From positions 64,001-128,000 of IMG/VR virus record IMGVR_UViG_3300012344_000011: a DNA stretch of 64,000 nucleotides. One strand, written 5' to 3'. Positions 1 to 45,539 of this stretch are shown here, piece after piece. Position 1 is the first letter of the stretch. Every line of letters begins with the position of its first letter. Source of the DNA: a virus. Taxonomy: Duplodnaviria; Caudoviricetes. The notes beneath the pieces are model-generated. The model ran no database searches. It saw only the letters and a list, made by a program, of their open reading frames with translations, and was not told the origin of the DNA. Made by a program: the position numbers and the translations under genes.

Positions 1-260
1 CTTGTATTTGTCAAAGGCTTGCTTCCTGCATAAACTGGGAACTCACTTTTGCCTACCCGCAAAGAAACATTTGCTGCGGTGTTTGCATAACTAAAAGTAA
101 TTGAAATTTGAACACCGTCCAAAGGTGCGACTTCCTTGTCAAACGTACATACTTTGATAGAAGCATTTCCCTCTGTAGCACAGCTACCAGTATAAACGCC
201 AATACCTTGAGCATCTAATTTTCCTTTTGTTACTACTAATGAATTTGACACACTAGCCAT
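1..260 (-). CDS. Tail fibre-like protein, N-terminus (runs off the window)
   Basis: ATG at 260 with AAGGAGGTG SD overlapping the upstream gene end. MASVSNSLVVTKGKLDAQGIGVYTGSCATEGNASIKVV...ISITFSYANTAA resembles tail fibre repeat segments; sits at the end of the tail module. Confidence 0.55.
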   Translation of the reverse strand, partial: MASVSNSLVVTKGKLDAQGIGVYTGSCATEGNASIKVCTFDKEVAPLDGVQISITFSYANTAANVSLRVGKSEFPVYAGSKPLTNT

Positions 261-1125
261 TAGCAAACACCTCCTTTTCTAATGATTCTACTGGGATATT
301 ATCAACAACACAAGAGAATTGTGTAACATCCGATAAAGCACTTTTCAAAAAGCTAAATACTCCAGTTGCATTAGAACTATTTGACATATTCCCATCAATA
401 TTATTTCAAGAAAGTGTATATAATAAAGAAATACTATATTTATTCAAAAAATCTGTTACTTCTTCTTTTATTGATTGACCGTTCCGCAAAAGAGTACATA
501 CTATAGTGATAGTACCATCATCATCTTTGACAAAGCTTCCTTCGTTGCAAACAATATCCACACTATATATACCTTGCGGCACAGTCGCAATATTTATTGT
601 ATTTGTAGCAACTAATTCTTTATAGTCTTTTGAATTATAAATATTGCATAAAATAGAGTCAACATCTGCGGTATAAGAAAAATTCAATGTTCCGTCCTCT
701 TGAAGTAAATTTCCTAAGTCTTCGTTCAGTCTAAAAGATGTTCCATTCTTTATACCAAAAATAACAACATAATAACTGACTGAATCTGTCGCTAACTGTC
801 CATCTTTATATAATTTGATAGAAACAGTTTTCTTTTCTTCTCCTTGACTTAAACTTAACACATATACTGGTTTTTCTATTTTTACAGAGAAGCCTTCTGG
901 TGTTTGCTCAAGAATAGAAGCACTTTTTAAACTTTTCACAAGAGCTGTATAACCATTCTTAGTTTCTGTCAAACTCGTTTGTATATCTTCTAATTGAGAA
1001 TTTAATTCAGCGATAATTTTATTTTGAGAATTAACAGTTGCTTCTAAATCTTGTTTTATAGATGCGCCAGCGATCGGCCGCACTTCACCATTAAGATTGA
1101 TATAAGAAATCTCTCCTGTCGCCAA
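253..1125 (-). CDS. Tail-associated structural protein (TGA at 406 read as Trp)
   Basis: The frame stays open past the TGA at 406 (YTLS-W-NNIDGNMS...) to a TAG at 253 that overlaps the next ATG. Confidence 0.65.
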
Positions 1126-1144
1126 AATATCACTCTCCTTTACA

Positions 1145-1181
1145 AAAAAATAAAGGCGGCTAGGAATAAACCTAACCGCCT
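1145..1181 (-). terminator. Rho-independent terminator
   Basis: AGGCGGTTAGG...CCTAGCCGCCT hairpin followed by a T-run on the minus strand. Confidence 0.6.
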
Positions 1182-1251: not shown

Positions 1252-4200
1252 CTATATTCTTCTAGTTGCTTTCGCCGCAGTAATAGACATTTGCTGATTG
1301 ACCGCAAGTGGCAAAGAAATAGTTTTTATTTCATACTTTCCAATAATCCCAGATACAGGTTCTCTAATTTCTACCAAAGTATTTGGCTTTAGATAGAAAA
1401 TAGGTTTAGCAAGAGACATATTTATTTGTTCTTGATAATCTGTATGCGTCATCAGATTATATCTCAAAGTATCATAAGCACCCTTGCTTCCACCGCCAGT
1501 TGAGAAATGAGAATAAATATCACTATTAACTCTTAATGGACTACTATAGCCGTTCGCTTTTAGTAATTCTTCTTCCTCTTGGATGCGGATTCTTTCATCT
1601 TCGTCAACGCTATTTGATACAAAAACAAAACCGAAATCAGGAGGATCTTGCGCAAATAAACAGTTCACTTCATCATCTTTTACAACGATTCTACGGCAGC
1701 CTATATTAGACACACTATATTCCCCCCATTTACTGGTAGACGCATCAAGTATATCTAAGAAATAAGAACCTACAATTCTATTATCAACATATCCTGTGTT
1801 AATAATAAGAGTATCATTTTCATTTTCTGTTTTTCCTTGCGATAAAACCGCACCATCTTTATCTTCTGCAACAAGCTCTACACTTTCTCCATCAATATTT
1901 TTATAAGAAATAACGCTAGAACTTAGACTATTTAGTACAACTTGATCATTAGAATAATAATCATCACTTGTTTTGGTTGCTGTCTTAAAAATTTGTTTCT
2001 TGAGATCATAAATCACAGGCCAATTTGCTAACAGCTCTGCGTAATATTGACTTTGTTCATTACCAACAAAACCACTCTGTAATCCTTCAAGAATGATTTC
2101 TGTTCTTCAATCTTTTGGAATATAGGCATCTAATTCAGTTTGTTGGACTATTGGATTAGCTTCATCTACTGGGAGCTGTTCCATAAGTTTTTTATATGGA
2201 CCTGTGTACCAAGTTGAGTTACAGTTCATAGAAGCTCTGTTTTCATTAGTAGTCTGCTTCATAATTGGAGCAATATTGTCTTTTAAGAAATCAATATAAT
2301 CATATCCGCCCTTCTTATTATCCCCGTCTCCATTATGATAATAATAATGTGTTCATTCAACATCAACAAATTGTTTTTTATTCATGTCCCAGATATAAAA
2401 TTCAGGTTGTTGAACAAAGTAAGTATCTTGAATATAATAAAAATTTGTTCCAGGAACTATTTCAATATTTTCTGCTACACCTATTTTTTCTAACATTTTA
2501 TATCTATCGTATAGCATAGCTAAAAGTAAATCTCTTTGCTGGATAAGACACTCTTTTATTTTTTGTCTTTCTGTCTTAGCTGCTCCAGCTTCATAAAATT
2601 TATCAATATATTTATTTATATATTCAATATATTTTCTAAGTTTTGATAGTGTTTCTTTTACCAAATTAGAAAAATTTCTGTATCCGTCTAAAGTAATTTG
2701 ATGGGTAGGAACAATATAAATATGATCAAAACTGTCTAAACATTTAGATAAATCAACTTGATTCCAATATATGTCTCCAATAGAAGAGGTGAAAGAAGAC
2801 TCATATTCACTATATTTCTTTTTATCAATAATATATAAAACAACTTTATAAGACTCTTTTAGTTCTTGACTCAAAGAAGTATTCTCAATTTGACCAGTTA
2901 ATTTATTAATAAAAGATTCTTCCCACGTAGGGCTTCCATTGAAAAACCTTATTGGATTGCTTATATTGTTTTTATAAAGTTCTAAGAAGAAAGCCTTTAT
3001 TGTTTCTACCAATAAGGTTTCTTTTGAAGCATAAGGATTATCTATAAAAGTATCAATATCACTTCTAATAGATTTTAGTTCACTAGAGCTTGCGGGAGTG
3101 AGGCTATCATATATTGTAGTATTATCTTCTACTGTTATTGATTCTTTGATAGCTCCATCTGCATTTCTAAAGTCAGCAGAAGAGCTTGCTTTTCTTGTTA
3201 CCTTAAGTTCTTTATTAACATCAAGCCTGCCATAGATAACACCAATGTCTCCAACGATTGGAAGTGTTTCAGTGCTTGTTAAGATTTGCGGCGCAGCTAA
3301 AGTATAATTATTAGTAACCGTATCTTTATAAACAAGTATATTTGAATACCCTTTTTCATTTAGTCGCGGTTTATTATCAATTGCAAAATGATAAATAATA
3401 TTGCCGCCATTATTACCACTCTTACCAATTATAACATAATCATTTTTTATATTCTGATATTGAGGAGAGACTGAAAAACTAGTTATATTAGAAGAATCAC
3501 TAAATAAATAAACAACGTCTCCACCAACAGGATCATAAGAATAATCTTCGTCTGAAAAATTTTTTGTCCATTCATAAGTAGACTTAGAAGTATTCAAATA
3601 ATTTTTTATTTCTTGAAAATGAAAAACACCAAACTCATCATAGAAATATTCATAGTTACCTAGCCACTGCTTCAAGGTATCTAGTAATTGCGTGACAGTG
3701 CTACCTGCGTCTAAAGTAAGTTCTTTATCATAAACAAAATCTTCATAAACATATCCTACGTCATATCCACTTTTGAAGCATCTTCCACCATATCTTCCTG
3801 GATTGACTGTCGCTAAATCATCTTGGCGCCGCACTTCATATTGTCTCTCAACTTGATTATTGATAATTACGTCTTGCCAAATTATCCATAAAGGAGTAGA
3901 ATCGCTTCATTTCAAGGCTCGTCTAGCTTTTTCAGGAACGTCATCAACCAAAATATTTGAATATTGTTCACCACCGAAATGATTCACCGCCTCTTGGATA
4001 ATTTGTCTAACAGGAACTTTCTTTTCAACTTGTTGTCCTTTTACAATATCTAGAGTTTGATCAAATCTTGTTGTAGCAGGTAGCATTCCTCCAATAGTAC
4101 CATCTAATAATGAAATTTTATCTTTCAATTTTATAGAAATACTTAGTGCACCAGTGCTAGCAGCTGACATAGAAAATTCAGTTATAATCATTACCCCTTG

Positions 4201-4536
4201 CGGAAACCATAAGATAGGATAATCTTTATAGTTGCCAGTATCGTTCTTTACACCAATTTCTAGGAAAATTTTTTTCCCAATAGAATAGTCAGCTTTTGTT
4301 GTATACATATCATACTCAAAGCCATTTACAGTACAATTCAAAGAACAACTAACGCGGGCAGCGGATGAGCCGTCTTTTGATAACGACCCACCCGTAATAA
4401 CGCCTTCTAAATTTTTTATTTTCTTTTCTGTCTGAAAATCTAATAAAGTAATTTTTACATATCTCTCTTGGAGAAAAATTTTATCAATTTCTTTCAAGAA
4501 ATCTTTATCTTGTAAATATGGATAATGTACTATCAT
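1252..4536 (-). CDS. Tail tip / baseplate hub-like protein (~1,094 aa, 3 TGA=Trp)
   Basis: ORF pieces 3907-4665, 2353-3834 and 1252-2016 share one frame and are separated only by TGA (3907, 2353, 2107). AGGAGG SD before the ATG at 4536. C-terminal PIFYLKPNTLVEIRE...GKYEIKTISLPL is hub-like. Confidence 0.7.
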
Positions 4537-7500
4537 TTCCATTCCCCTCCTTGTAAATTCCAAGAGAAACAAGATTGTTATAGTTACAATCTGCAATTTC
4601 ATACATTGTTGCAGAGAACTCATATAATCTTCTGCTAAGCCGCGCTTCCGCGGATAGAGAAACATTGTTTAAGATAACGACTAGGTTACCCTCAGTTCCA
4701 CTTCTAAATAGTTTAGGTTGACCATCATTTAGCCAAGCTAAAACCTGCTCTCTAAATTCTCTTTCAATTGCCCATCTATCTTCCATAGGAACAACATTAT
4801 AGTCAAGATGTTTAGCAGCGTCGTCAAGTGAAATATAAGGATAATGCGGCGAGTGGTCCTCTTTTGTGCAATTGTTTATTTTTGAAATTAGTGTTTTGCA
4901 GTATCCTTCTCCTAGTAAATCACTAATAGATAAGAATTTATTTGATAAGTTATCGTCAAAAGAAATTAGTCCAGTAATACCAATTTGTTTATATTTTAGA
5001 GTTCCATTTTTAGTAAACACTGGATATTTACCACCAATTGTTTCAACCATTGATCGTCCGACTTTACTTGTAAAGTTGTTTATCTTGAAGTTATAACTTA
5101 GTTTCAAAATTCTATTTCCTCTAAGCAAAGTAGCATTATAAAAATTATTTGAAACATTATTTATCTGCTTTACTTCGCCCGCTTCTTGCGCTCCAGAAGA
5201 AAGTTGAACAGCATATGTATAATCAATACCACTTTTTAGAATAGGATCAAAGAAATAATAGTCTTGATTTCCATCCTCTTTCTTAGGAACAATAGATCTT
5301 TTGTTCACTTTCAACCATGTGCTATAATTATCTTCAGAGCTTGCTTTGAAAACATCAAAGCTAATAGTTTTATTCTCATCTATCAAATTAGAACCATTGA
5401 TAGAAACTCTTAAAGTATTGTAGCCATATTCTTCTTCAACTTCATCTATTGAAAATCCATTAACGAATAATTCATTGAAACCAGCATTGTTTGACGGATG
5501 ATAATAATCATTGATATGAATTTGATCTACTTGTTCACCAGAGTACCCATTCTTTGTTGTGTATCTCCAACGAACAGAACAATCTGAATTAGGAAGTCCG
5601 TCTTTTGTAAAATCAAAATACTGCATTAGTCCATTGACTTTATATCCAGACAAAAGATTGTCTTTAGGATTTTTATCAGCGTCACCCGCAAGAACAACTT
5701 TATTATTTTTCAATATATCAATAGTAAAACTTTCTACATAATCATCAACTTCATTTTCGTTGATGGTCTTTCCAGTGAGAATGTCATAGAAAGTTAGTTT
5801 GCCACCAATGAAACTATTTATTTTAGGTCCAAAACCATCTGAAGGAAAGCTAGTAATTACGCGGCAAGGTGGAATTGGTTTGATAAGTGTAGCACTTGAC
5901 CATTCACTAAAATTATCTCTACTTGAAACCAAATATTTATTCAATTCTTCTATATCTGTTAGAGTTGAAAATTGATCATTTGTAAGAACAGTCGCGTCAA
6001 ATCTTAATTGAATTTTATAAAGCTTATGTTGGAATTGCTTATCGACAATTTTATTTACTGGTAAAGTAACAGTGCCAATATAAGTATTTTCATCAAAGCT
6101 AGTGTTCTCCCAGGGAACAAGAAGAACCTTCGCTCCATCCACAAGAACAGACTCGTTGGTTAGTTGATCAACAACAGACATTTGAATATACTTGATATTT
6201 TTTATTTTATCATCATTATATTCTGGCATAGTATATTCAATCACAGCATCTTCATTCCATATATTAGACTTTTGATATGTCTCAACTAAAGGAGGATATA
6301 ACTTATCGTGTTCTGCTGCATTATTATTTTCCCAAACAGCATAAAGAACTAAATCTTCATTTTTTGTATATTCTTTTGCACCGTCAGCATATTTATAGAA
6401 TGTTCCTTCTCCATATAGATTTGTTGTCCATCCTAAGAAAGTATACCCAAGTCTCTTGGGAATTTCTTTATCTTTATTAAAAATTGTATAGGTTTCATTT
6501 CTGTTCTTGAGATCAACTAGTGTTGTAAGACCATATCCACCATTTAGTATATATGTGATAGTGTTTACTTGTTTTTCCCAAATTGGGTAAAAGATTATAT
6601 TTTTATTAGTACCTTCGTCAAGTTGAATTTTTTGGCTACTATCTAGTGGAATCAAAAACTTCTTATCAGTATTGTCACTCTCTCTCAAATTATTAGTAAT
6701 CCAACCTGTGAAAACATAGCCCTCTTTTGTTGCCCAATCTTCGGGGAGAGTTGTTCTTATTGCATAAACAGTGCCAGTGTGTTTTTTGTCAGTTACAGAC
6801 TTTGCGGAGCTGCTTCTATTTTCTCTATAAGTAATATTGAATCCAACGTGTTCAAGTATTAGAGGAATTTCTTGTAAGAAAGCACTATAGTTTTCTGTCT
6901 CAGGCTGAGATGCAATTATTGTAATTTCTTTAGAATCTGTAGAAGTTGAGCCTGCTGGATGTGGATTATTCCATATACATCTAATCTCATTTAGATTATA
7001 AGTATTTTGCGTAGATCCAAGAACTTTTTCAATAGAGATATTTTCTTTGTCATTATTCTCTTCTGTGTCATCATTCTTGGCTGCAAAAGTTAGTTTATCA
7101 ATGTCTCCTACATATGTAAAAAAGAAAGTTTCTTCACACGGATTATTACTACAAGGAATAACCCACCTACTTTGATTTAGAGTTAGTGAAGGCTGTTTCT
7201 TTACAACATTTACACGGTAAACAATTGACTTGTGAGTTGGATCGTTGTCAGGAATATCATTTCTACTTATATAGTTACCATTTGGGTCTTCAGGAATTTT
7301 AATTTTTAAGTAGTGATTGTCTCCAAGTTTTCTTCCAAGTATATAAAATTTCTTTTCGTTAGTAATACCTCCAAGTTTATATTCTATATACTTGTCTTGC
7401 GATCAAGTGGTTTCTCCTTTTTCATTTATTTCTTTTGTAACGAGTCCTATCCGATCTATTTTAACAGGAGAATCTAAAAGATATTTGAAACTTACCCAAT

Positions 7501-24853: not shown

Positions 24854-25651
24854 CTAACAGAATTGCCAGTGATATCCACCAGCAGTTTTTTGTTCATTAA
24901 TACAACACTTAGAAACTCCTGCGCTTGATTTTAAGCCAATTGCTTTTGCAGCTTTGCACGCAGAAGAATAAACCATATTTGTTTCTATACATTTAACAGG
25001 CTTTGCTCAAGCACTATTTTGACTTAATTTTTCCTTATGCTCTTCAGAGAATTTTTTCCCATACATGGGATTATTTTCGCCACAATATTTTCCCATTTTA
25101 CTTTCAGACAACTTCTGTCTATGTTCTTGAGATAATTTCTTCCCCTTTAAAGATTTGCCAAGTTTACGTATTTGTTCTCTCTGATTTTCTCTTAAACCAG
25201 AATCTCACTGCATTTTTGTGGTAGAACCACTTGGAAGAATCTCTATATTATTAGATTCACATGCTTTCTGAACGGTAATTGGAGCACAACGAAATTTTTC
25301 ACAAACTGCTCTTTCAGATCCTAGCTCAATATAAGCTTGTGCCAGTTCCTGATACCTATATTTTAACCTTCCTTCTCCGCCGAGGGTCATATTATAGCCA
25401 TTGTTACAACTATCTAAAAGAGAAATTCAATAGCGTTCTTTCTTATTTAGCTCAGAATCATCGCAATGCTCTAATTCTTGAATTTCAAAATTTTCTTCGC
25501 CATATTTTCTCATGGCCTTGTAGAGATAGTATGGAACTCCATTTTTGGCGTTTCTTTTGTGCTCTTTAAATCTATGTTCTATAGTTCCCGCAGTTTGGCC
25601 AATATAAATTTTTCCTGTAAGAACATTTGTTATTTTATAGATACAGCCCAA
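24854..25651 (-). CDS. Free-standing GIY-YIG homing endonuclease with NUMOD3/NUMOD1-type C-terminus (3 TGA=Trp)
   Basis: CIYKITN..KIYIGQT, ERY-W-I, GYNMTLGG, NPMYGKK.SEEHKEKLS and AGGYHWQF. The frame is open through TGA at 25427, 25205 and 25007 to a TAG at 24854. Confidence 0.85.
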
Positions 25652-27842: not shown

Positions 27843-29854
27843 TTAAGCTTGATTCCATCCACTAACTTTAGTCTCATCAGCACCAGCGCCTTCACGACCA
27901 TCTTCTGTTGTCTTAGCATCAGTATGTCCTGAAGCACTTGAAATAGTATCAATAATATCAATGGCATAGAGAACCTTACCAGACTCACCACGGACCTTAC
28001 CAAGAGTACAATCAATAGTAAAGTCAAATGTGGAGGGATCGCCAGTTGCAGCCATATTGAATGTAAAGTTACCCTGAATCTTACCTTTTGGAATAATGAA
28101 TGTCGCAGGGAAGTCTTTACCAGTACCTTCATCACGGAATAGGGTTTCAGCTTCAATATAGAAAGTACCACCAAAGTTTTCTGCATCAACAGTAAGAGTT
28201 GTTACAGGCATATCTGTTGTTGCATAGCAGTCAACTAAGCAAGTACGTCCATTATATTTGGCAATATCTTTAACATTAGCGGGAGCAAGAGTTATTACTA
28301 AACCATCGGTAGTATTAGCAGTAACATCATCAATTTCACCTTTACTAATATATTCAACAACGCCACTACCGTTATTATCTAAAATCATAGCATAAATTTG
28401 ATACTCTTCTGAAGTACCAATAGTTAAATCTCCGCCTTCTACTTTAGCAGAATCAGCTACATAGATCTCATATCCAGTAAAATCGTCTGCTTTAACAGTA
28501 ATTTTAGCACTTGTCACACCGCTATCTCCAGAAGTAACATCTACAGTGCCCTCAAGCGTTAGGTGAACCTTCTTAGCCTTCTTTTCTTGGTTAACAACAC
28601 CAGCGCCAGAAAGCATTGAGAAAGAAATTGGAGATAAAAGTGCTTCTGTAATTGTAAACGTTGCCGTTTTTTCACCTCGTTGTATTCCAATAAGTTCGTT
28701 ACTCTCATTGCGTTCTCTCATGAACTGCTGCACCTTTATTTATACGTGCAGATTAGACTATATCTTCATCCTGCTTTGCAGGAGTTTCGCACTTCGACCG
28801 CACTTGCGGCCTACGTCCCTGTGGACTAGTCGTTGAACCTTCTTTGTTTTAAACAATTCTCTCGTTGAGTTATTTTTTGTAAATTATTCAAATGATTATT
28901 AGATGGGTTTCCATCAATATGATCAATGACAAAGCCATCTAAATCAAAATCATTATGAAAAGTACAATAAACAAGTCTATGCACATAGTAATGTTTTTTA
29001 TTATTAAAACTTACTCTAACATATTTTTGGTTTTTATCTAAATATAACAACCTATTGGTTTTATTATTTTTTACTCTACCAAAAGATGAAACCGAGTACA
29101 TATTGTTCTCTTGGAAAACCATTCATTCTTCACCTTCTAAGTTTTCTAGGTGATACCTAGGAGGTCTTGGGTTATGCTTTTTTATAGCTTTATGTTCTGC
29201 GCAATTCTCTTGCGCATCAACCCATTTTAGGTTTTCTTTCTTATTATTCAATTTATTTTCATCTATATGATGAACATATGGTAAATTTTTTAGGTTTGGA
29301 ATAAAATATTCAGCAACAAGTCTATGAGCATAAACCATTTTAGATAATTTCCTTTTAGATGTTGAAACCTTATCTTGAATAGCTAATGCATACACTTTAT
29401 AACCTGTATTATCTATTTTTCCTTTTAAAAATCTAGATGTTTTTTTACTATATAATCTACCATCAGAATAAATCAAATAATCTGAATCTTCTTTTAATTG
29501 TTTAAAATCAAAGCTTGGCTGCTGATTGTCTTGCATAAAACCTCCTTTATTTCATACTCAATATAATATAACATAAAAAAGTCTTTTGTCAAGAGTTCCC
29601 AGCAATTCACGAAATTTTTCTATAGCGTATTACTACGCTACCTGAGCTAGTGTAAAACAATCCCAGGCAATTAGACGAGCATTACCACGCCCACCTTGCG
29701 CGTAGACTGTGGTAGTTGCGACTTCCATATTAGAAGCTGTTGCTGTATCAATATAAAGGCAAGGCTGATATGGCTCAAAGTGTTGAGAGCCAATGTCCAT
29801 CGCTGCTAAAGGACGAAAAGTAACATTAGCAATATCGCGTACACCAAATCGCAT
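27843..29854 (-). CDS. Major tail tube protein, spliced (exons ~29661-29854 and 27843-28677)
   Basis: MRFGVRDIANVTF...YAQGGRGNARLIAW joins GEKTATFTITEALLSP...FIIPKGKIQGNFTFNMAATGDPSTFDFTID. The joined length is 343 codons. Confidence 0.8.
28678..29660 (-). mobile_element. Group I intron in tail tube gene, carrying an HNH endonuclease
   Basis: Core elements GAATTGCTGGGAA, AATCAGCAGCCAAG, TTCAACGACTA (R) and AAGATATAGTCT (S); P1 pairing GCCUGGG/CUCAGGU. Exact junction uncertain by 1 nt. Confidence 0.85.
28826..29536 (-). CDS. Intron-encoded double HNH (NUMOD4/HNH_3-like) endonuclease (1 TGA=Trp)
   Basis: HRLVAEYFIPN..VHHIDENKLNN...NLKW, then LEGEE-W-MVF...VSSFGRVKN...HRLVY...IDHIDGNPSNN. A TTGACA element lies inside the intron at ~29587-29592. 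Confidence 0.85.
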
Positions 29855-31365: not shown

Positions 31366-32247
31366 TTACAAAGATAATATATTAATAGGAAGAGTAAATT
31401 TCTCTTCGCCTACAGAATAAACTAAGCTAAAAGAACCTGTGCGGCCAGTGATAATCTCAAGTCTACAAGTTCCATTTTCTTGCTTCAAAATTTCTGCGCA
31501 AGAAGGATCACTAATGGAATACTCTCCGCCCGCAATATCAATAGTGTAAGCTTGAATATCATATGGATATACATTAGTTTCTCCTTTGATATCATAGGTT
31601 GGAGGAGCAACTTCAATGATTTCTGGTATATCCTCTGTAATACTATCAAAATATTCATTTACTTCTAATTCAATTATGCCCGGAACAGTAATAGAATCTA
31701 CAACTTTTATTTGCCAATTATGTCCGTTAAGTTTGATTATAGTAAATCTATTAAAGTAGTCTAAGGTCTCTTGGGTTCTTTTTATATATACAGTACCAGA
31801 GTAGTTCAAATCATTCCAATTTACATTTTGCTTCAAATTTCATCTAATAGCAGTCTCTATTGGACCTTGAAAATAAACCCAATAGGCATTGTCATTGATA
31901 GTTAGCTGATATCGACAACGAATAATTTCTGCTCTTAGATAAGCAATCTCTGTTAGAATTGGTAAATATACCATCCAAGTCGTATCATCATCAATACATC
32001 GAAAGGTATCACCAGATTGCAAATTATATTTGAACTCTACTGATACATATTTTTTATCATAATCTGGTTTCAAATTATTTGTATTAATAAGACACTGACA
32101 ATGAGTGCCATTTTCTAATTCAATTTCTCTTGAATTATAATCATTTTTCAAAGCCGCTAAAAAAGAATTAAGTTTTTGTTTCTTTATACGACCAAGATTA
32201 TTTCCACCTGCATAGTCAATTCTTGTTTTCAAGGTAGCTAAAGACAT
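31366..32247 (-). CDS. Putative head-closure / neck protein (1 TGA=Trp)
   Basis: GAGGTG SD before MSLATLK; ORFs 31840 and 31366 are joined by ETAIR-W-NLKQNVNW. Confidence 0.65.
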
Positions 32248-32258
32248 TCTTATCACCT

Positions 32259-32570
32259 CTAAACAATTTCTTTTTGAATACTTTGCACTATTGAGCAGCA
32301 TTCAAAAATTGCTCTGCGGAATAATATAAATTCAATCTCATTCTTTGTACTATATAATCCTTGCAGTTTTGCAAGTAAAGTAAAATATTTTTCATTTTTA
32401 GGAAACAATGAAGCTAAGCCCGCGACCTCAATAAGAATCGTCTCTAATGGCTTTACCCAATCTTCCCCTTCTTCGTTTGCGGGAAGCAAGCGAAAAATTT
32501 GATTTGTTAATCTTCTTAAATTAGAGCATAATACCTCATTGTCTACATTATTATTATAAATCGTTTCCAT
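32259..32570 (-). CDS. Hypothetical neck-region protein
   Basis: Intact ORF, coupled directly to the upstream TAA. Confidence 0.6.
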   Translation of the reverse strand: METIYNNNVDNEVLCSNLRRLTNQIFRLLPANEEGEDWVKPLETILIEVAGLASLFPKNEKYFTLLAKLQGLYSTKNEIEFILFRRAIFECCSIVQSIQKEIV

Positions 32571-34138: not shown

Positions 34139-34154
34139 TACACACCTCCCTATA

Positions 34155-34712
34155 TTACTCTTCTACCCTACGAACCTTCCCCTGTTCTTTCTCTGTAGAA
34201 CCAACTCTGCGGCCAGTAGGTTTATTTTCTTTGACCTCTTGGTCATCTTGTTTTGACTGCTCAATTAAATTAATCATAGAAGTAATGTTTCTACCAGTAG
34301 CCTTTGTGATTGCGTCTCGTTTTGCTACGTCATTAAGTTTCATCTGAACAGCTTTAGATACGATCATATCTACAATACCTTCTGGGGCAAAATCTAAAGC
34401 ATCTTTAAGCGCGTCTAAAGAACCATAAATAAGAATCGCCTCAACATCTTTTTCTGTCCAATTATATTCATGAGCTAATAGATCATCACTGATACCAAAT
34501 TCTTTTGCTAGCTCCGCATTCTTAACACTAAGACATTCATCTAAAAGAACACCGCCGCCTTTAGTGTAATGTAATGCGCGTAGCTCAGCCGCACTAACTT
34601 TTACAATAGCTTGACCAGGAAGAACTCTACGTTTACCTTCATAAGAAATATACCCAACAGTATGATCAGTTAAGTTCTGAATCTCAATCAATTCATTATC
34701 ATCAACAGCCAT
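34155..34712 (-). CDS. Hypothetical virion-module protein
   Basis: Intact ORF with SD, directly downstream of the major capsid gene. Confidence 0.6.
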   Translation of the reverse strand: MAVDDNELIEIQNLTDHTVGYISYEGKRRVLPGQAIVKVSAAELRALHYTKGGGVLLDECLSVKNAELAKEFGISDDLLAHEYNWTEKDVEAILIYGSLDALKDALDFAPEGIVDMIVSKAVQMKLNDVAKRDAITKATGRNITSMINLIEQSKQDDQEVKENKPTGRRVGSTEKEQGKVRRVEE

Positions 34713-34772
34713 TTTTATCTCCTTTTATCTCTAAAAGGGAGGAACGTTATTGTTCCTCCCCATTATTTTTAA

Positions 34773-35870
34773 TTATTGCCAAGTAGACTCTGTATTACGA
34801 GTACTCTTCTTGAGGTTGCTATTCTTGTAAATACCAATCCAAACTAACTGACCAAGAGAAGCAATAGTACCAACGCCAACCTTAGTGTAAGTCTGAATCT
34901 CGCGGCTCCAGTCATCAGTCTGATTTTCTACTTCGCGAACCTGAGTCTGACCCTCAAAAACAATCTTAACAGGTTTTTCAGAACCAGTAGGAATTAGGTA
35001 AGCTAAGGAAGGATCAACAACCTTCTCTGCATTAGCATCGCCAATGCCATAAACTAGAGACTGATCAAGAATAATTACATTGTGGCCCTTATACTGACCA
35101 AGCCAGTTCTTATTCCAAAGCTCATTCTTCATTTCATTAGACATACGAGCATCAGAAGGAATCATCTTGTTAGCAAATTCCTGTGTGCAGTAAATGGTAG
35201 CCTTACCATATGTATCAACAATTGCAAGTAACTCGTCCATAGTCTCTTCATCAAAGCCAGCAAACGTAGCCTTGTTAGCCGCAGGCAAAGAAGAAACCAT
35301 AGAAGCTAGAGCCTTAATAATCTCCTGGTAAATTAGTTCATCAAGACCCTCTAACATTAGAGTTGTAAACTCAGAGAACTCCCAACGACCATCAAGGAAT
35401 TCCTCAAAGCCGATGCGGGCAGCGCCACCGATAGCACTCGTCTTAATATCAATCTCAGCACCATCAAGCATGAATGTCTCATAACGACCAGCTAAACCGA
35501 CCTTAGAAACGAAAGACTTAGCACGTCTCTTGGACATTTCAGTAACCTTGATACGATAATGGTAAGTATCACCCTGGGGAACAGTAACAGTATCAGCAAA
35601 CTGTTCGTACTGTGCTTCAACACGAGGAGGAAGAACTTCATCAATTGTCTGCTCAATAATAGCGAAAATTGTATTCTGATTCTCCTTATAAGCACGATAA
35701 TTAAACTTATCATTAACATGTGTTAATGCCTTGAACTGATCACGAAGAGCAGCATTTAATTTCTCACTAGAGTAATTCTCGCCGTTGTAAGAGAAGGCAA
35801 CGGGAGCATTTTTCTTTGCAGACATTGCCGCAACAGATAACTGCTTAGCAGTTTCAAAATCAAAACTCAT
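34773..35870 (-). CDS. Major capsid protein
   Basis: 365 aa, strongly biased codon usage, follows the protease/scaffold and decoration genes and precedes a hairpin terminator. IFAIIEQTIDEVLP..EQFAD is HK97-like. Confidence 0.8.
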   Translation of the reverse strand: MSFDFETAKQLSVAAMSAKKNAPVAFSYNGENYSSEKLNAALRDQFKALTHVNDKFNYRAYKENQNTIFAIIEQTIDEVLPPRVEAQYEQFADTVTVPQGDTYHYRIKVTEMSKRRAKSFVSKVGLAGRYETFMLDGAEIDIKTSAIGGAARIGFEEFLDGRWEFSEFTTLMLEGLDELIYQEIIKALASMVSSLPAANKATFAGFDEETMDELLAIVDTYGKATIYCTQEFANKMIPSDARMSNEMKNELWNKNWLGQYKGHNVIILDQSLVYGIGDANAEKVVDPSLAYLIPTGSEKPVKIVFEGQTQVREVENQTDDWSREIQTYTKVGVGTIASLGQLVWIGIYKNSNLKKSTRNTESTWQ

Positions 35871-35892
35871 TATTATTTCCCTTCCTTCCTAA

Positions 35893-36423
35893 TTAAGCTT
35901 CAACGACTTCTAGTTTTACGCCAGGCTCACCATCGGGCATGGTGTAAACTTTAATAACCTGTAAAGCAACGGGAGCAGTAGCGGCAGCAGCCTTCTTTAA
36001 TATACCACCCTCACCAACAGTAACATAATCACCAACAACGACAGGAAGCTCAGCCGCATTAGCAAAGCAGTTGGTTGTAAAAGTGTCACCAACAACGAGT
36101 TTGATAATGCGAGGAACCATTACGCCATCAACAAAACGGCTCTCCTCCATTGCGTAATCTTTATGAGCCTGCTTGCGCTCGTCATAAAGCTTCTCTTCAT
36201 TAAACACCATCCAAGCATTCTTAAGCTCTTTGGCAAGCTCAAGACAACCCTTAGCCGCATCACGAACAACAAACTGACCGTTCATTAAAGCACCGTCAGC
36301 AGACTCTCGAATAGTAGTCTTTGCCGCATCGCTTAAAGGTAAGTCACCACGCACTTGACCAGTACGAGGAGCAGATAGGAAATTAGGCTCTACATAGCCG
36401 TAGCCACTTCTAAAATTAGCCAT
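35893..36423 (-). CDS. Capsid decoration / minor head protein
   Basis: GYGYVEPNFLSAPRTGQ...YTMPDGEPGVKL; lies between scaffold and major capsid genes. Confidence 0.65.
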   Translation of the reverse strand: MANFRSGYGYVEPNFLSAPRTGQVRGDLPLSDAAKTTIRESADGALMNGQFVVRDAAKGCLELAKELKNAWMVFNEEKLYDERKQAHKDYAMEESRFVDGVMVPRIIKLVVGDTFTTNCFANAAELPVVVGDYVTVGEGGILKKAAAATAPVALQVIKVYTMPDGEPGVKLEVVEA

Positions 36424-36461
36424 TATAACTTATCCCCTTTCAAATATTCTAATCAATTTTC

Positions 36462-37886: not shown

Positions 37887-37902
37887 CTAATCTCACTTTC
37901 TT

Positions 37903-39492
37903 TTATCCACTACTCTCAATATTTCGTAGTGTTTTTTCAGACTTTTCATCATCTGGTTTTGGCGGTCGTCCTCCCTGATTGTCACTGGATGGCAAACCGG
38001 TCTTTTGCTTTTCATCATTATCATTAGTGGATGCCTTATTTCCACTCATGGTAGATGACATTTGCGGCGGAACAAATAAATCATTGAGATCCATTATTTG
38101 ATTCTCAAAAACGGCTGTTGCAAGAATGTCTGATTGAGAGTGTCCAAGAGCAACTTGAGGTAATAATTTGGAAAAACCAAGTTGTGTTTGTTCTTTGTAG
38201 ATTTTAGAGAGATCTTTATAATTGTAAATTGTTGTTGGTAACATACCAACACAATACTTTAGTCTTTTAGCATTCTTATTGAAAGGAGCTAAAAGTCTCT
38301 CAGTATAATCCGCAAACTGTGATAATAAATCATTCATTGTTGCTTCGTCATTTGCAATTGATTTATCTAACGCCGTCTGCCCATCTGTATTGAATTGCTT
38401 TTGGCTAACGCCAGCTTCATTATAAAGTGAGCGTTCAACTCTTTCAAGTTCATCAATAGACGAGGCATTACCTTTATCAGCTAAATCCGCAACATCAACA
38501 TCCGCAAACGTTGTCAAAACATCAAGTCCAATAGCATCACCAACCATATTTACTACGTTGTTATGTAATGCATTAGCTTCTGCCACATCGAAGATTAAAT
38601 CTCCATTTTTGTCAATTGGCATTTTCTGTATGATAAGTTTGAGAAGTTGTTGCTGCATTTTAACTTTGTCTAACTGCTTGGCTTCTTCCAAGTCTAAAAT
38701 TGCGGGAATAACTGAAATGAATAGCGGCGCGTCACTACCACTTAAGTTAAACTTCACAGTTTTTGACGGATCTAATAGAAACCAACCAGCTTCATCGCCA
38801 TTGAAATCTTTTTGCAAAGAACCATTCTTATAGGCGATATAAGCTTTTTGAAATTCTTTAGGGAAACTCTTCAAAACTTTTAATCTGTAGATGTTGTCCG
38901 TAAAGCAAGCATCAAAAAACTTAATATTAAACTCCACCGCCGCTATGCCGTTAACTTCATATCTTGAACGGCAGTAGTCGGCGGGTAGTTTCTGCAAATA
39001 AACGGCTGTTGGCTCATCAATAATATAGCCATAATAGCAGCCTTGTTTGATAACATCTAAAGCATATCTTCCAAAATTTCTCTTTAGTTTACAGTTATCT
39101 AAGTATGTACTAGCCTTCATCCATCCTTCAATGACTTTCTCATCTTTTACTCTTTCATCATACCTATGTGGGGTTATGAACCAGTCATATCTGTATAGAT
39201 AAGCCATGTAACGGCAAAGTCTTCCGTAGATACCACTTCTTAAAGCAAAGTATTCAGAAATACGTCTAAGCTCTGACACATTATTATTGTCAATTGCTCT
39301 TTCAATATCTTTTCTATCATATTTTCTCTTTCGTGTAGAACCTAGATAGTCGCTTACAATAGAAGAAGTAAGACTACCATTCAAAGACGATTGGCCTACC
39401 TTGATTTTGGAAAAATCAAGAGTGGCCTTCGTTGCTGTTGATTCGCTCTGAAGTCTAAAATCTCTTTGACTTCTATCTCTCAAAGTAGCCAA
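37903..39492 (-). CDS. Portal protein
   Basis: 529 aa between terminase and protease; C-terminal GGRPPKPDDEKSEKT typical of portal proteins. Confidence 0.8.
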   Translation of the reverse strand: MATLRDRSQRDFRLQSESTATKATLDFSKIKVGQSSLNGSLTSSIVSDYLGSTRKRKYDRKDIERAIDNNNVSELRRISEYFALRSGIYGRLCRYMAYLYRYDWFITPHRYDERVKDEKVIEGWMKASTYLDNCKLKRNFGRYALDVIKQGCYYGYIIDEPTAVYLQKLPADYCRSRYEVNGIAAVEFNIKFFDACFTDNIYRLKVLKSFPKEFQKAYIAYKNGSLQKDFNGDEAGWFLLDPSKTVKFNLSGSDAPLFISVIPAILDLEEAKQLDKVKMQQQLLKLIIQKMPIDKNGDLIFDVAEANALHNNVVNMVGDAIGLDVLTTFADVDVADLADKGNASSIDELERVERSLYNEAGVSQKQFNTDGQTALDKSIANDEATMNDLLSQFADYTERLLAPFNKNAKRLKYCVGMLPTTIYNYKDLSKIYKEQTQLGFSKLLPQVALGHSQSDILATAVFENQIMDLNDLFVPPQMSSTMSGNKASTNDNDEKQKTGLPSSDNQGGRPPKPDDEKSEKTLRNIESSG

Positions 39493-39501
39493 TGTCCCTC
39501 C

Positions 39502-39870
39502 TTAATAACTATTTATCAAGTTCATTAGATAATCATAACTTAGCTTATTCTCTTCTGTAAAAGGAATCGTAATAAGTTTTAAGTTATGGTCTAAACAGTA
39601 TTTTCTTTTTTTAGCATCATTATGCTGTTGACGATAAAGTCCTTTTGCCCCACCAAATTTGGGAATGGCCATATAATGTTGCCGTCCATTATATTCTATC
39701 AAGCAATCAAGATTTCCATCATCATCAAATAAAGCGAAGTCAAACCGCAAATGCTTACCATTCTCTGCGGTCAAGTCATCAAATATATATTCTTCTTCAA
39801 AAGGAATATTTCCATATTCTAAGTAAGAATGAATCTTTCTTTCGCCTTCACTAGACAGCAAATCAATCAC
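39502..39870 (-). CDS. PD-(D/E)XK / DUF559-like endonuclease
   Basis: LRFDFAL...LIEYNGRQHY...NDAKKRKYCLDHNLKLITIPF. Confidence 0.7.
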   Translation of the reverse strand: MIDLLSSEGERKIHSYLEYGNIPFEEEYIFDDLTAENGKHLRFDFALFDDDGNLDCLIEYNGRQHYMAIPKFGGAKGLYRQQHNDAKKRKYCLDHNLKLITIPFTEENKLSYDYLMNLINSY

Positions 39871-39957
39871 CTCCTTTAGAGAAGCAATAAACTTCTTTGT
39901 CTATTTGTATATAAAAATAGCAAAGATTGAATAATATTGTTTTGTCCATATTTTTTC

Positions 39958-42900
39958 CTAATTTTTAGATCCAATTTTAGTGAACAAAGTCATAGCACTC
40001 AAATCTCTACTTGCTCTTCCTTTTCCTTTGTCCTCTTGGAGCTTGCAATAATAAAGACCATAAATCAAAGCAGATACTTTATCGTGCTTGATTTTTGCGT
40101 TTGCGGGCTTGAGGATAATAGTTTGTCCCTCAGATTTATCAACCAAATTGGCAAGCTGTTCCCGCAATACATTAGTAAGAACAAAAGGCTTGAGGTATTC
40201 ATTTCTTTTTTCAATAGACATTTTTTGCCCACTACTTTGAGACATAAGTTTGTTTTTAGCAATACTATCATCAATTAAGAATTTTAGTTTACCATGCTGC
40301 ATCTGCGTTTGGCAATAAGAATACATTTCAGAGTTGAGAGTAGCGTTTGCCCGCATTAGATACATCGCATTATGAATAGTATCTGGCGTCTCAAAGTTTT
40401 TATATTTTCTTCTTCCTGTTTTAGGATCTGGATCATCGTTGATAACACCTCAGTTATATAAGACTTCTCCTGTTTGCGGATCTACTTGATCTGTTACTAA
40501 GAAGTCTACTAGACCTGTACCTAAGCCATTAGCGTCAACCACTGCTACTTTACAGCGGTACTGTTGGAAAATTTGTTTGATTCTAATTGCTTGTTGTCCA
40601 AAGTGTTCCGCATCAATTGTATAAATATTCACAATTTTTTTGATTGGTACGCCTGTCAAAGATGGCATTACTTTGATCACTAAAATTTCAGTCGTACAAT
40701 TGAAACGACCAACATCAACGCCCAAGAGGTAGTATATCTTAGGAGTGTTTTTACCCGAAGGAGTATATTCAGGTAAGTTGATAATGCGGTTGCGGTCAAA
40801 CACTTCTGTACTAAAGAATGCGGCTTCCACATCTCCTGCTCAATTAGAGTTATATTCTCTTTCAAATGTTGCTTCATTGAACGTCATATAATCCAATATT
40901 TCTATTGGTACTGACTATCTCTTACTTAATATTATATTAAGAAACCCTTTTCGAAGCACTTCTCACTAGTGCCCCTACTTCTGTAAACCAGAATAGTCGA
41001 TACAGCTTCAATTATTCTTCATATTTTTATAAATATGAAGAATAAAAGCTTGCCACGGGATTACCATATCATAAAGACTTAGGCTTCCCCGTTAGCTTAT
41101 TTTAGTAAATAAACCCCGCTGAGAAACGGAAAAAGTTTTTAGGGCGCGTTCTTCTTTCACCCTCAAGTTTGAGGTCGCTAACGAAAGAGCCAGAGATAAG
41201 CTTTTCCGCAACTGGGATTCTCCAGTCTCCACCAAAAACAAAAGCCTGATCTGGTCTAGCAACCATTTGACACAACATTTGAATTAGTCTATCATAAGCA
41301 TAAGTATTCTTATATCCCGCAGACGTAACAAAAGTTTGCGCTTGGTTCAAAATTTCATTTTCATCTACACTTCCGTCTGGAAGTCTTCTAGAAACATTAA
41401 GAGTAGGAATAATAACTTGCTGTAGCATATCTTGGTCTAATGTTGCAGCTTCTTCCATCACATATATTCTACGTAAATCGCCAATTTACGCACGTTTTTA
41501 ACTGCTGCATATCACTATGCAGATTAGACTATATCTTCTTATATTTATAATATAAGTTCCCTTTTTCCACTATCAGTGGCTTATAGTGTACGATTTTCAT
41601 CTAGTCGTTGAACCTTTTGCTATCCGCAACTTGGCTGCTGATTGTCTAATCTGTTTACTTTTTGAACTATCACGCTTACCATTTCTAGTTACGTTGTAGT
41701 GTAAACAGTCCTAAAGAGTTTCCAGCAATTAAGGGAATTTATTGAGCTGAGCTGATGGATAATGTTAACCCAGCTTGAAAACGACGTCCTCTTGTTTTAT
41801 CAGAGCACGCAACATTTTCTATTGTTGAACCATTTTTAAAAGTATAAATTACGCTATCTTTTGTTTGTCTTGTGCGGACGGTGCCCATTCCACGTGTATC
41901 CCAAATAACTTCTTTTGAGAAAGCTGGAATAAGTTTACAAATTTCTGAAATTTTGTCACTCAAAATTGATGCTGACTGTTCCTTCAGTTCTGTTATCGCA
42001 AAGGCTTTTTATCCTTTACTTCTTATACTTTTTTTCGTATAAGCTCGGCATATCTTTTCTTCCTATAAAGCAATAGGAGTCGCGGCCTCTTGGTAGGATT
42101 ATATCTTTTCACCTACTATGCTCTGCCCCTGACTGTAGTTCCTACAGCCTTCGGTTCGGGTTAGCGTCTCAGCCTTCCCGCTTAGTTCCGCGATTTATTT
42201 TTACTAAATTACTTTAGTAGAGGGCAAGTTTAGTATTTTGACATTCTTTATAATTCAAATATTTTTGATATTTTCTATCTAAATAAACAGTTGTATCACT
42301 ATAAATCAAATCTAAAAAAGCATTGATTTTTTCTTTATCTCCAGTTTGTATTCTATATGCTCCATCAGGTTTTTCATAATGAACTGGATATAATGAACAA
42401 TTTTCAAATAAACCAACTTGGTTTTTCAACCCTTTCAAAAAATCTTGACTACCTAAAATATTCATTCCTAGCTTATTTGCATACCAGAAAGAGCCATCTC
42501 CATCAAAGTATCCTCTAAGAAAAGGTGCTAAAAAATTATTTGGAACTTGTTCTTCATTAGGAAAATTTTAGAATAAGACTTCTACGTGATACACATCCTA
42601 GCTTTACTAAGTCTTGATTTATTGTTTTATTTTTGAATTGATAACGAAAACCACTAAGATTTTCTCTATGATATATTTTATTGTTTCTTCCAATAAAATT
42701 TTTGAATTTGACAAGATGAAAATAATCTTGCTCTTGTAGAGTTAGTTCAATACCATAGTCATAGTTTTTCCATTATGAATATATCCATCTGCTTCTAAGA
42801 ATCCAAGTCAATAAGCTTTTTCTTCATTATCAATTATCTTGAATTTATTTTCATCAAAAAACAATCTAAGCACTCCCTTCACTGTCTATATATTTTTACC

Positions 42901-43236
42901 CTCAGCAACAGTGAACAAGTGCGCACCTGGATACAAGATTGCTTTTATCATTAGCGACATGACAGAAAGAAATGACTTAGAATAAGCACGGCAGAAAACC
43001 GCATATGAATACTTGTGCCGCATTATCGCCCGCAATGTAAGTCTTTGAAAAAAGAAAAAGTGGAAAGTGTTGTCAGGATTGAGACTGCATAAATAATCTA
43101 TGAATCTGTCTGGGTATACTCTCCAATAGGCAATAGCATCTCTAAATTCATCTAAGTGTTGTAGAAGTAAATCTTCTGTAATCTCAATTTCATAATTGTC
43201 TGGATTTTGATTTTTCAGTAAATCTTTTAGCGCCAT
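39958..43236 (-). CDS. terL: Terminase large subunit, 4 exons (42898-43236, 41768-41984, 41159-41460, 39958-40884), 2 TGA=Trp
   Basis: Walker A-like FCRAYSKSF; VAEG|KEQSA; RGRRFQAG|LMEE (Walker B); LEG|TFNEATFEREYNSN-W-AG; nuclease motifs LGVDVGR, VVDANGLG and HDKVSA. Exons sum to 595 codons. Confidence 0.9.
40885..41158 (-). mobile_element. Group I intron 3 of terL (no ORF)
   Basis: Exon ends GAGGGU with P1 to GCCCU; TCGACTA / GAGATAGTC P7; terminal G. Confidence 0.88.
41461..41767 (-). mobile_element. Group I intron 2 of terL (no ORF)
   Basis: P1 GCUGGGU/GCUCAGC; AATTGCTGGAAA, AATCAGCAGCCAAG, TTCAACGACTA and AAGATATAGTCT core; terminal G; removal restores GLMEE. Confidence 0.9.
41985..42897 (-). 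mobile_element. Group I intron 1 of terL with a degenerate LAGLIDADG ORF
   Basis: Core GCTAACCCGAACC...GCAGAGCATAG...AAGATATGCCG...AACAGAACTG; removal restores AEGKEQ. Confidence 0.88.
42214..42873 (-). pseudogene. LAGLIDADG endonuclease with two frameshifts
   Basis: EEKAY-W(TGA)-LGFLEADG and FLRGYFDGDGS. One base is missing in an A-run (~42765-42769) and there is one extra base in a T-run (~42562-42565). Confidence 0.75.
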
Positions 43237-44462
43237 TATTCAATCTCACCTGCCAACCGCATCGCTTCTTCCTCAATTTCATTTTCAAGATAACGAGAAA
43301 ATTCTTCTGCCTCTTGATCTGTTAAGCAATTTGCTTCAGCTTCATCTGCTTGAGAAAGAATGAAGTCATCGTCTAAGAGATTGTCTTTTTGCTGCTGTTC
43401 TTGCTGTTGCTGCTCAAGCTTGTCGATATAAGATTCAATTAGATTACCAAGACCAAGCTCTTTCGTAACAAGATTGTAATTGTATTGCTTCATATCTTTG
43501 ATACAGAAATCAATTTTATCTTGCGGGTAGTCATCTGGATTAGGAATATTGGGAATAATGCCACCCTTCTTCTCAACCAAGAAAACCAGCTGTCCAATAG
43601 AATCGAAGTCTTTTTGTTGATTTTCTTTATTTTGTGCTTTGGTTAGATTAGCTGATTTCCGCAATGAATCATAGGTAGAAGAGAAAGATTTATATGCGTT
43701 AGTGTCTCCTACTGTTAATGCTTCATTCATTTTTAGATAGACTTGACAGATTTGCCGCACTACTGCTTTACTGTCTACATTGAGATCAAACGTTTGTTCG
43801 TAATCATGATACATCTGTTCCATTGACAACCACTGAGAAGGTTTATAATTATCACCCCATTTAGTCGCCATTTCAATTTTTTCATCTGCGGTCAAAGAGC
43901 TTAAAATTTCTTTTTCTCTTTCTTCTTTAGCTTTTTCCGCAGAAGTGTCTGAGAAAGTATATTCTTTTTCAGTATGATCTATACCTCTAGAGAGAGGGTT
44001 CAGAGTATTGAACTCTGCCTGAGAAATTTCTCCCGCGTCTAATTTCGTTTGAAGTTCCATAAATTCTTGTTGAGCTTCTTCTGAATTGACTGCGGCTTGT
44101 TTCTCAAGGCTTTTCTTAGTGCGCTCTTCTTCCAAGAGAGCAAGTTTGACTGTATCTGAGTAATTGTATTTTAGATATTGCGTCATATTCATCATCCGCA
44201 AATATCTGCCAAGGACTGATGCACTTCCAAAAGAAAGCGGATTTTTGTCATAGGCTTTTTGCGCTTCATCTTTCCAAACTTTTTCAATATAAGGAACATC
44301 AAATTTTTCTAAGATTCATTTGAAAGTTTCAGGCTCGTCATTTTTTATATACATGGTTAGGCAACTTTTGCAAACAGGAAAGCGTGTGTGTTCACGTGTC
44401 ATAAAGAAGTCTTTTTCAGGACGCTCTCTGCCGCATTGGTTGCAAACAATTCTTTCAGCCAT
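43236..44462 (-). CDS. Zn-finger protein, probable terminase small subunit (1 TGA=Trp)
   Basis: MAERIVCNQC...VCKSCLTM...TFK-W-ILEKFDVPYI; its stop overlaps the terL ATG. Confidence 0.6.
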
Positions 44463-45539
44463 TTATTCCTCCTTTGCTACTTGATTGCGGCAACACTTGC
44501 AAGCGGAATAATATCCATCTTTAGTTGTGTTTTTGCCAAAGAAGTAAGGATGCATTGGCTTGGATTTGCCGCACTTGCTACATTTTTTCCATTCTGTTGG
44601 GCGATGGGCAGAATAGTACCAAAGTACCCAGTCTTTGCGGGCTTGCTCTGCGATTAGTTTAGGAATGCGTTGACGCCAAATTGAAGAATAATATTGCTCA
44701 CTATGTTCAATGCCGTCCAGCCGCATCCTTTCTTGAATTTCTCTATTGGAAATGCCATCTGTCTTTCATAGGATTAGGTTGTAGTAGGGTGAGTCTTGCG
44801 GGAATAGCTTTGATATTAGATCTTCTAGTTCAATAAGCATTCACCGCACATCATTGGATAAGTGTTCATATGTGTCTTGTTTCAATTGAGAATAATTGCA
44901 GAGGAGATATGAAACGTGATCAGGCTCCAAGAGAGAAAGTTGAGAGTCAATAATAAGAGAACCATCTGGCCGCATCGTAATTTTTTCAGAGATCTCAGCG
45001 CAACGATCATTGAGGTTGACTGGTTTAGCGGTTGTAGAAGGCGTTCCCTTGAGGGATGCGCGAGTAAGGTATAGCTGTTGCCATTGTTCAACTATTTGTT
45101 TTTTGATTGAATATTTGCGGCTGCCCTTACTTTTATTTGCCATTGATGTAAGAGATTGAATGGTTGCGTACTGCTCTTTGAGTTGCGGGAAAGTCTCCAG
45201 TTCTTCTTTTGTAATTTTTTCTTTACGATCTAAGAGTTGGTTCTTATCATTGTTGATAAGAGAGTGAAGACCATCTTCACCATTCTCAAGAGCATCTATC
45301 ATTCCTTCGTATGAAGTTTGTCTTTTATTGATAGTAATTTCTCTATTCTTGGTAGTGATAGAATATTTAGTGTTACGTTCTTTTTTTGTTTGAGTTTTAT
45401 CAGATATAAAGAGAAGGTAATTTGATAAATATTCTAAGAGGTAAGGTGTAAGTTCTTCCTCTGGGGTTTTTGAAATGAAGTTTTCTACTTTTTTGACTCG
45501 CTCTTGCGGATCAGTGATTGAATAATTTAGATAAAACAT
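44463..45539 (-). CDS. HTH + C-terminal Zn-finger protein, putative transcription regulator (2 TGA=Trp)
   Basis: In frame through TGA at 44841 and 44766. KTDGISNREIQE...HSEQYYSSIWRQRIPK is HTH-like; KKCSKC...SACKCC. Confidence 0.6.

Follow-up and report, generated by a model that had tools for sequence, protein, structure and literature searches.

In the Mycoplasmatales genetic code 4 operates genome-wide: release factor RF2 has been lost and TGA is the main tryptophan (Trp, W) codon. The "Agate" phages, as outlined in the passages of Borges et al. drawn on here (bioRxiv 10.1101/2021.08.26.457843), are TGA-recoded viruses of ~127–154 kb from animal and human guts with predicted Firmicutes hosts. 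TGA occurs in their structural genes and in the gene of an intron endonuclease; their replication genes keep the standard code, and they encode suppressor tRNAs. According to the same passages they have standard-code relatives at >90% average nucleotide identity, and recoding was proposed to delay translation of the late genes. Phage phAss-1, of the proposed Phassvirus group (Babkin et al. 2023, PMC10607447; accession OQ749652), is TAG-recoded. The sequence studied here, called the window, comprises 64,000 nucleotides (bases 64001–128000) of IMG/VR virus record IMGVR_UViG_3300012344_000011. Positions refer to the window unless given as genome positions, which count along the whole record. An earlier note, made from the sequence alone, had proposed that TGA is reassigned to Trp across the virion module in positions 253–45539. 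The recoding is real: TGA is a sense codon in this block.

The record is a single virus sequence of 139,824 bp with 34% G+C, estimated by CheckV to be 96% complete. Its capsid protein (34773–35870) has phAss-1 as best named match (45% identity over 96%), more distant matches being those of large Enterococcus, Brevibacillus, Geobacillus and Bacillus phages. On sequence comparison the window is assigned as the late (virion) arm of a ~140 kb phage of gut or rumen, kin of phAss-1 and of large Firmicutes phages of the Enterococcus EF1 and "Agate" type. In IMG/VR, 35 contigs are related to it, with capsid identities of 48–63%; several are 125–145 kb long. The relatives sort into standard-code, TAG-recoded (phAss-1) and TGA-recoded (11 contigs) sets. 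Megablast of positions 26000–46000 against named phages returned only short intron or endonuclease matches, and a search for related loci with the 2104-amino-acid (aa) tail protein found no relatives. Tail TGA sites were compared through the tail regions of relatives first found by the capsid gene.

TGA as a sense codon and the residue it specifies

The minus strand of block 253–45539 has 34 in-frame TGA codons distributed over 13 genes, plus one (42808) in a frameshifted LAGLIDADG open reading frame (ORF), close to the about 33 first estimated. The five protein motifs quoted in support of the reassignment, which span the minus-strand TGAs at 42808, 40840, 25427, 29123, 20241 and 20232, are exact in the sequence. 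Comparison of gene calls under tables 4 and 11, suggested at the same time, gave a clear difference with a simple codon-usage gene caller. Table 11 yields 52 genes (median 159 aa, maximum 1054 aa, coding density 0.844), whereas the same caller with TGA as sense yields 30 (median 290 aa, maximum 3001 aa, density 0.935). TAG as sense brings no gain in this block (density 0.856). Under table 4 same-frame fragments join into genes of, among others, 290, 1137, 1579, 2104 and 3001 aa, and codon-usage scores are positive on both sides of the TGAs. The tape-measure ORF, which has 3001 codons with eight TGAs here, is unbroken in five standard-code relatives (2735–3304 aa). The consequence for annotation is that table 11 leaves the virion arm in ~50 fragments and table 4 turns it into 30 genes, including the 3001-aa tape measure and tail proteins of 1100–2100 aa.

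All called genes end in TAA or TAG, as had been seen for the gene ends inspected previously; among the 149 gene calls of the genome the stops are TAA in 107 cases and TAG in 42. At most four genes are candidates for ending at TGA, with a back-up TAA or TAG 0–6 codons on. These candidate surviving stops (genome 24042, 15353 and 55614; window 58197–58202) comprise two TGA-TAA tandems, one ATGA start/stop overlap and one case with TAA three codons on. TGA ends ~18% of the long ORFs of standard-code relatives.

The residue specified by TGA was addressed by masking the TGAs as X, aligning the proteins by tblastn to relatives and tallying the subject codon under each X. The tally covered the 35 IMG/VR relatives, phAss-1 and further stretches of ten relative records, and gave data for 25 sites. 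Opposite the window TGAs the 241 aligned residues include W 119 times, TGA 41, L 17, Y 16, F 15, M 11, S 4, G 1 and C 0; residues other than W, S and G are aromatic or hydrophobic. Trp is the commonest residue at 9 of the 25 sites, each in a conserved protein. A BLOSUM62 likelihood places Trp first, with a lead over Tyr of 290 nats when all residues are used and of 17 nats with one vote per site; the same per-site vote sets Ser 41 nats and Gly 47 nats behind Trp. The preference of the earlier note for Trp over Gly thus stands, and the outcome that it had named as contrary, Gly or random residues in homologues, is not what the columns hold.

Its statement that TGA falls at family-conserved Trp positions stands for part of the sites. 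At TerL 40840 the column has W in all 27 aligning standard-code homologues and TGA in 5, and at the homing endonuclease TGA 25427 the solved structure of I-TevI (1LN0/1MK0) has W. The tape-measure sites and the NUMOD4 site 29123 do not bear it out, their columns being poorly conserved or unaligned; at 29123 the I-HmuI alignment begins 7 residues downstream of the TGA. Other informative columns are TerL 40450 (W in 17 relatives, TGA in 5), 31840 (W 23, TGA 3, S 1) and 11899 (W 6, TGA 2). Outside the window, a methylase TGA is aligned with W of the solved structure of DpnA. Another TGA, at residue 575 of RecJ, falls inside the RecJ_OB and PHROG matches and is therefore read through. The two TGA-bearing LAGLIDADG copies have their TGA in the same KAY-W-LGF motif, and a TGA-free paralogue (32810–33742) has a TGG-coded W one column over. 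In the reciprocal test, the positions of this phage that face TGAs of the 11 TGA-recoded relatives are for the most part W or TGA. Taken from these alignments, TGA is almost certainly read as Trp.

Distribution of TGA, the suppressor tRNA and the code of the host

TGA accounts for 71 of the 487 Trp codons of the genome (~15%), the other 416 being TGG. Its share is higher in the late minus-strand block (40/177) than elsewhere (31/310; p = 2.7e-4). TGA is concentrated in tail, tape-measure, TerL, sigma-like and homing-endonuclease genes. Of the early and core replication genes, those of topoisomerase II, ligase, primase, the Sak4-like protein, the NrdD-like protein and the two parts of the DNA polymerase contain none, and neither do the capsid and portal genes or the endolysin-like gene. 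The claim that recoding runs across the virion module therefore holds for the tail, tape-measure and TerL genes and fails for capsid, portal and other head genes, which lack TGA. Recoding also extends beyond this module: outside the window TGA occurs in genes of a LAGLIDADG endonuclease (3 TGA, 0 TGG), an HNH endonuclease, a DNA methylase, RecJ and RuvC.

A purine follows in-frame TGA in 50 of 57 cases (88%; A 51%, G 37%) and TGG in 259 of 416 (62%; p = 9e-5), and T after TGA is scarce (9% vs 21% after TGG). The bias has the same direction in the TGA-recoded relatives (p = 0.004). Nonsense suppression is reportedly most efficient before a purine. We infer that the bias reflects selection in the presence of a competing host release factor, and this favours a host with the standard code.

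The window was said to show no tRNA(UCA), and ARAGORN indeed finds no tRNA there. The rest of the genome, where the earlier note had recommended a search, does have one: ARAGORN identifies seven tRNAs genome-wide, including a 97-nt tRNA(UCA) at genome 51418–51514 (+), 12.5 kb before the window. The plus-strand replication block contains the gene at its far end; ~1 kb further on, a strong bidirectional terminator divides this block from the late one. Neither a gene of the tryptophanyl-tRNA synthetase (TrpRS) family nor a release-factor gene (RF-1 domain) was found in the phage. ARAGORN also detects a long-armed tRNA(UCA) of 96–97 nt in four TGA-recoded contigs and an aberrant copy in a fifth; no tRNA(UCA) was found in five standard-code relatives, four of which are 100% complete. 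Note that the terminator-like element is a hairpin (genome 52537–52567) of 14 pairs with T runs on both sides, placed between the converging replication and late blocks. As to other tRNAs, a tRNA(CAU) of 86 nt (genome 6950–7035, minus strand) has a 4-bp variable hairpin with a GAAA loop, and a tRNA(CUU) (genome 130176–130248, minus strand) was found by Rfam and missed by ARAGORN.

Judged from the sequence, the recoding is very probably a switch driven by a suppressor tRNA, with TGA as Trp, in a standard-code host. The tRNA(UCA) of the phage would supply the Trp meaning of UGA in a host that presumably has the standard code with RF2. Early genes would be readable at once, and TGA-bearing genes would give full-length products only once the suppressor tRNA has accumulated; this delay of full-length products would keep infectious particles from being completed early. 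The host TrpRS would charge the tRNA(UCA), because the phage is without a TrpRS or release-factor gene.

Several points weigh against such a switch. The host was sought by searching bacterial genomes with the endolysin-like protein and nothing was found, so that the standard code of the host is deduced. The gating is unclean: capsid, portal, scaffold-region and endolysin-like genes are without TGA, and RecJ, methylase and RuvC of the replication block carry it. Many TGA columns of the tape-measure and tail proteins are too variable to indicate the amino acid. Finally, the tRNA(UCA), with class II shape, G73, G1-C72 and a score of 44.8 bits against the Rfam tRNA-Sec model, looks by shape alone nearer to a Ser or selenocysteine (Sec) tRNA than to a Trp tRNA.

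The alternative that survives best is that the host itself uses code 4 (Mycoplasma-like, no RF2) and that the phage follows its host, with no switch during infection. This would agree with the TAA or TAG ends of every called gene, with the sense use of TGA in several modules and not only in late genes, and with the scan for a host that gave no match. It is nevertheless improbable, as TGA makes up just 15% of the Trp codons in a genome of 34% G+C and does not occur in core replication genes or the main head genes, the phage brings its own tRNA(UCA), and the purine bias after TGA suggests that a release factor competes. In addition, the relatives at 48–63% capsid identity use the standard code, with TGA as the stop of ~18% of long ORFs, or read TAG as sense, and the four genes with a TGA at or near their end have TAA or TAG close behind.

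The extra arm of the tRNA(UCA)

The tRNA(UCA) is built with 7/5 stems, a 3-bp D stem, G1-C72, G73 and an encoded CCA end. Its variable arm forms an 8-bp hairpin whose 7-nt loop, GUCCAAA, reproduces the anticodon loop of ordinary tRNA-Trp. Seryl-tRNA synthetase (SerRS) does not read the anticodon. The long variable arm, the 3-bp D stem and G73, all as in bacterial tRNA-Ser, together with the score near the Rfam tRNA-Sec cut-off (44.8 against 47 bits), could point to insertion of a residue other than Trp at TGA, namely Gly (code 25), Ser, Cys or Sec. Such a meaning is very improbable in view of the columns, where W was counted 119 times against S 4, G 1 and C 0, the remainder being aromatic or hydrophobic, and where Ser and Gly fall 41 and 47 nats below Trp in the per-site vote. 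For Sec in particular, the fold is 7/5 with a 3-bp D stem instead of 8/5 with a 6-bp D stem, the D arm is not Sec-like, and Cys appears at no TGA column. Most members of the wider tRNA family described below have A1-U72 and G73 as in bacterial tRNA-Trp, whose identity rules are said to include these elements. A Ser-inserting suppressor derived from a Ser or Sec tRNA was the first interpretation of this tRNA, on the basis of its class II shape, G73 and the tRNA-Ser-like T arm and anticodon stem; it was dropped in the light of the alignment tallies and of the tRNA-Trp-like bodies in the wider family.

With Trp as the residue inserted, the variable arm might have a function of its own. A tentative proposal, which may well prove wrong, is that it acts as a decoy anticodon arm: the U33-CCA-A37-A38 copy would offer the host TrpRS its CCA identity element and the UCA anticodon would read UGA. 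In that case a standard-code host would insert Trp at stops without any phage synthetase.

To assess how general this arm is, IMG/VR was scanned with a pattern in which the anticodon arm and the T loop alone were fixed and the variable region was disregarded. The scan retrieved 85 distinct tRNA(UCA) genes, 18 of them with a short variable region. A 7-nt loop of the form N-U-CCA-N-N on a hairpin of at least 4 bp is present in 34 of the 67 distinct long-armed sequences (the sample plus the tRNA of this phage). The loops are GUCCAAA (14), CUCCAAA (14), GUCCAUA (3) and UUCCAAC (3), carried by 29 different stems whose four loop-proximal pairs are paired in every case. Most tRNAs with this decoy-type arm have tRNA-Trp-like bodies (A1-U72, G73, AGGGGC-type acceptor stems). 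The ~20 tRNA-Sec-like genes of the same sample have unrelated variable loops. A TrpRS-family gene occurs in none of 12 near-complete records with the decoy-type arm and in 2 of 8 near-complete short-armed ones, a difference that is not significant.

The tRNA pattern gave at least 120 matches in bacterial genomes, mostly by chance; among the matches listed there is one decoy-type tRNA, along with seven alphaproteobacterial tRNA-Sec genes. The latter carry GUCCAAAA in their variable loop, which is taken as coincidence and makes them false positives for the pattern. The design occurs widely among IMG/VR phage contigs and only rarely among bacterial genome representatives. No publication describing a CCA-looped extra arm of a phage tRNA(UCA) was found. 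If the hairpin does recruit TrpRS, it would be a new way to keep tRNA identity after an anticodon change, and the CCA-bearing hairpin could be tried out in the design of suppressor tRNAs meant to be orthogonal or portable.

Gene content of the block and relation to described systems

The features of the block are compiled in the table below. The sigma-like gene is the first gene of the minus-strand late block within 253–45539.

Table. Predicted features of the late block (window coordinates; TGA positions are those of in-frame codons).
Feature	Position	Strand	Remarks
Tail-region gene, 290 aa	253..1125	-	TGA codon 406-408; ends TAG; no Pfam/PHROG match
Large tail-region protein	1252..4665	-	phrog_32343; TGA 3907, 2353, 2107; 3907 opposite W in 6 relatives
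Tail or fibre protein, 1579 aa	4505..9244	-	Listeria-Bacteroides repeat; TGA 9107, 8729, 8669, 8396, 7664, 7403
Tail protein, 2104 aa	9259..15573	-	TGA 15217, 11899, 11011
Tape-measure-like protein, 3001 aa	15696..24701	-	TGA 24540, 22053, 21582, 20241, 20232, 19377, 18654, 16065; aligned columns variable or hydrophobic
GIY-YIG/NUMOD3 homing endonuclease	24854..25651	-	TGA 25427, 25205, 25007 vs one TGG
Virion-module gene, 484 aa	26316..27770	-	TGA 26670, opposite W in 3/3 matching relatives
HNH/NUMOD4 homing endonuclease	28826..29605	-	TGA 29123; also 29558, 29552 near called start
Head/neck-region gene	31366..32301	-	TGA 31840
Major capsid protein	34773..35870	-	Name from Bacillus phage Kirov match; 0 TGA, 6 TGG
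Portal protein	37903..39492	-	phrog_2739, E 3.7e-85; 0 TGA
TerL exon 4, nuclease half	39958..40884	-	tblastn match 40884-39976; TGA 40840, 40450
TerL intron 3, group I	40892..41181	-	Rfam RF00028, 50.1 bits
TerL exon 3	~41159..41461 (ends approximate)	-	tblastn
TerL intron 2, group I	41505..41777	-	Rfam RF00028, 70.8 bits
TerL exon 2	41763..41996 (ends approximate)	-	tblastn
TerL intron 1	~41997-42894	-	Holds LAGLIDADG ORF 42214..42885 in three frames, TGA 42808
TerL exon 1	42895..43236	-	tblastn
408-aa gene	43236..44462	-	phrog_3314 (function unknown); TGA 44316, opposite W in 13, TGA in 7, P in 6 relatives
Sigma-like gene	44463..45539	-	phrog_5767 (sigma factor), E 1.4e-34; TGA 44841, 44766; columns W, Y or TGA

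TerL of relatives, unbroken with 587 aa, maps by tblastn to four exons in the window. By this mapping its fragmentation is mainly the work of three introns, to which only two TGAs add. A split TerL is also found in some relatives. An N-terminal extension with five TGAs, in ORF 42886–43329, was considered and rejected as coding, the first TerL exon starting at 43236. The LAGLIDADG ORF in intron 1 is truly frameshifted, which would suit the idea that the TGAs are assembly or sequencing errors or mark decaying pseudogenes, but we give this idea practically no credence: ~35 TGG-to-TGA errors with zero in-frame TAA or TAG in ~15,000 codons are not credible, coding potential is intact, and independently assembled relatives have the same TGA positions (for example, the TerL 40840 column in 5 contigs).

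Other features lie outside this block. An RNA-repair-like set comprises a cREC_REC (cyclic-phosphate processing receiver) protein with three TGAs (window 60968–61615, minus strand), a phrog_850 "RNA-binding protein" (window 61708–63177, minus strand) and an RNA ligase (genome 4501–5778, minus strand). The plus-strand DNA polymerase is coded by two ORFs (genome 36963–38267 and 40778–42760) between which are an HNH endonuclease gene and two more ORFs. One ORF lying between the polymerase halves has 3 TGA and 0 TGG. The polymerase gene looks like one invaded by an intron or endonuclease.

The clade unites standard-code, TAG-recoded and TGA-recoded members at 45–63% capsid identity, and is a good system in which to study how, and how often, phages change their code. 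The closest parallel to the present phage among its TAG-recoded kin is phAss-1, the best named capsid match, which has a genome of 136 kb, a gut source, recoded stops in virion genes and its own suppressor tRNAs. The two differ in the codon and its reading: phAss-1 reads TAG as Gln (code 15) through a tRNA(CUA), whereas TGA is read here, as predicted, as Trp through a tRNA(UCA). Code 4 of the Mycoplasmatales and their phages shares with this system a UGA that means Trp and is decoded by a tRNA with a UCA anticodon. It differs in that TGA provides here only 15% of the Trp codons and is gene-selective, and in that the tRNA is phage-borne and has an extra arm. Code 25 of the Absconditabacteria/Gracilibacteria and their phages also has TGA as a sense codon; there it specifies Gly, a residue that was met here once in 241.

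The likeness to the "Agate" phages, established by description only from the passages of Borges et al. mentioned above, is extensive. It concerns genome size, TGA as Trp in structural and intron-endonuclease genes, a replication core in the standard code, a suppressor tRNA, and standard-code or TAG-recoded kin. The difference is that the endolysin-like and main head genes are without TGA here. Those passages do not describe the shape of the suppressor tRNA, and neither the purine context of TGA nor this tRNA shape was found in the portions of the Borges and Babkin papers considered. Within the same portions, the recoding itself fits the published picture of phages that reassign TGA to Trp, of which this phage would be a further member.

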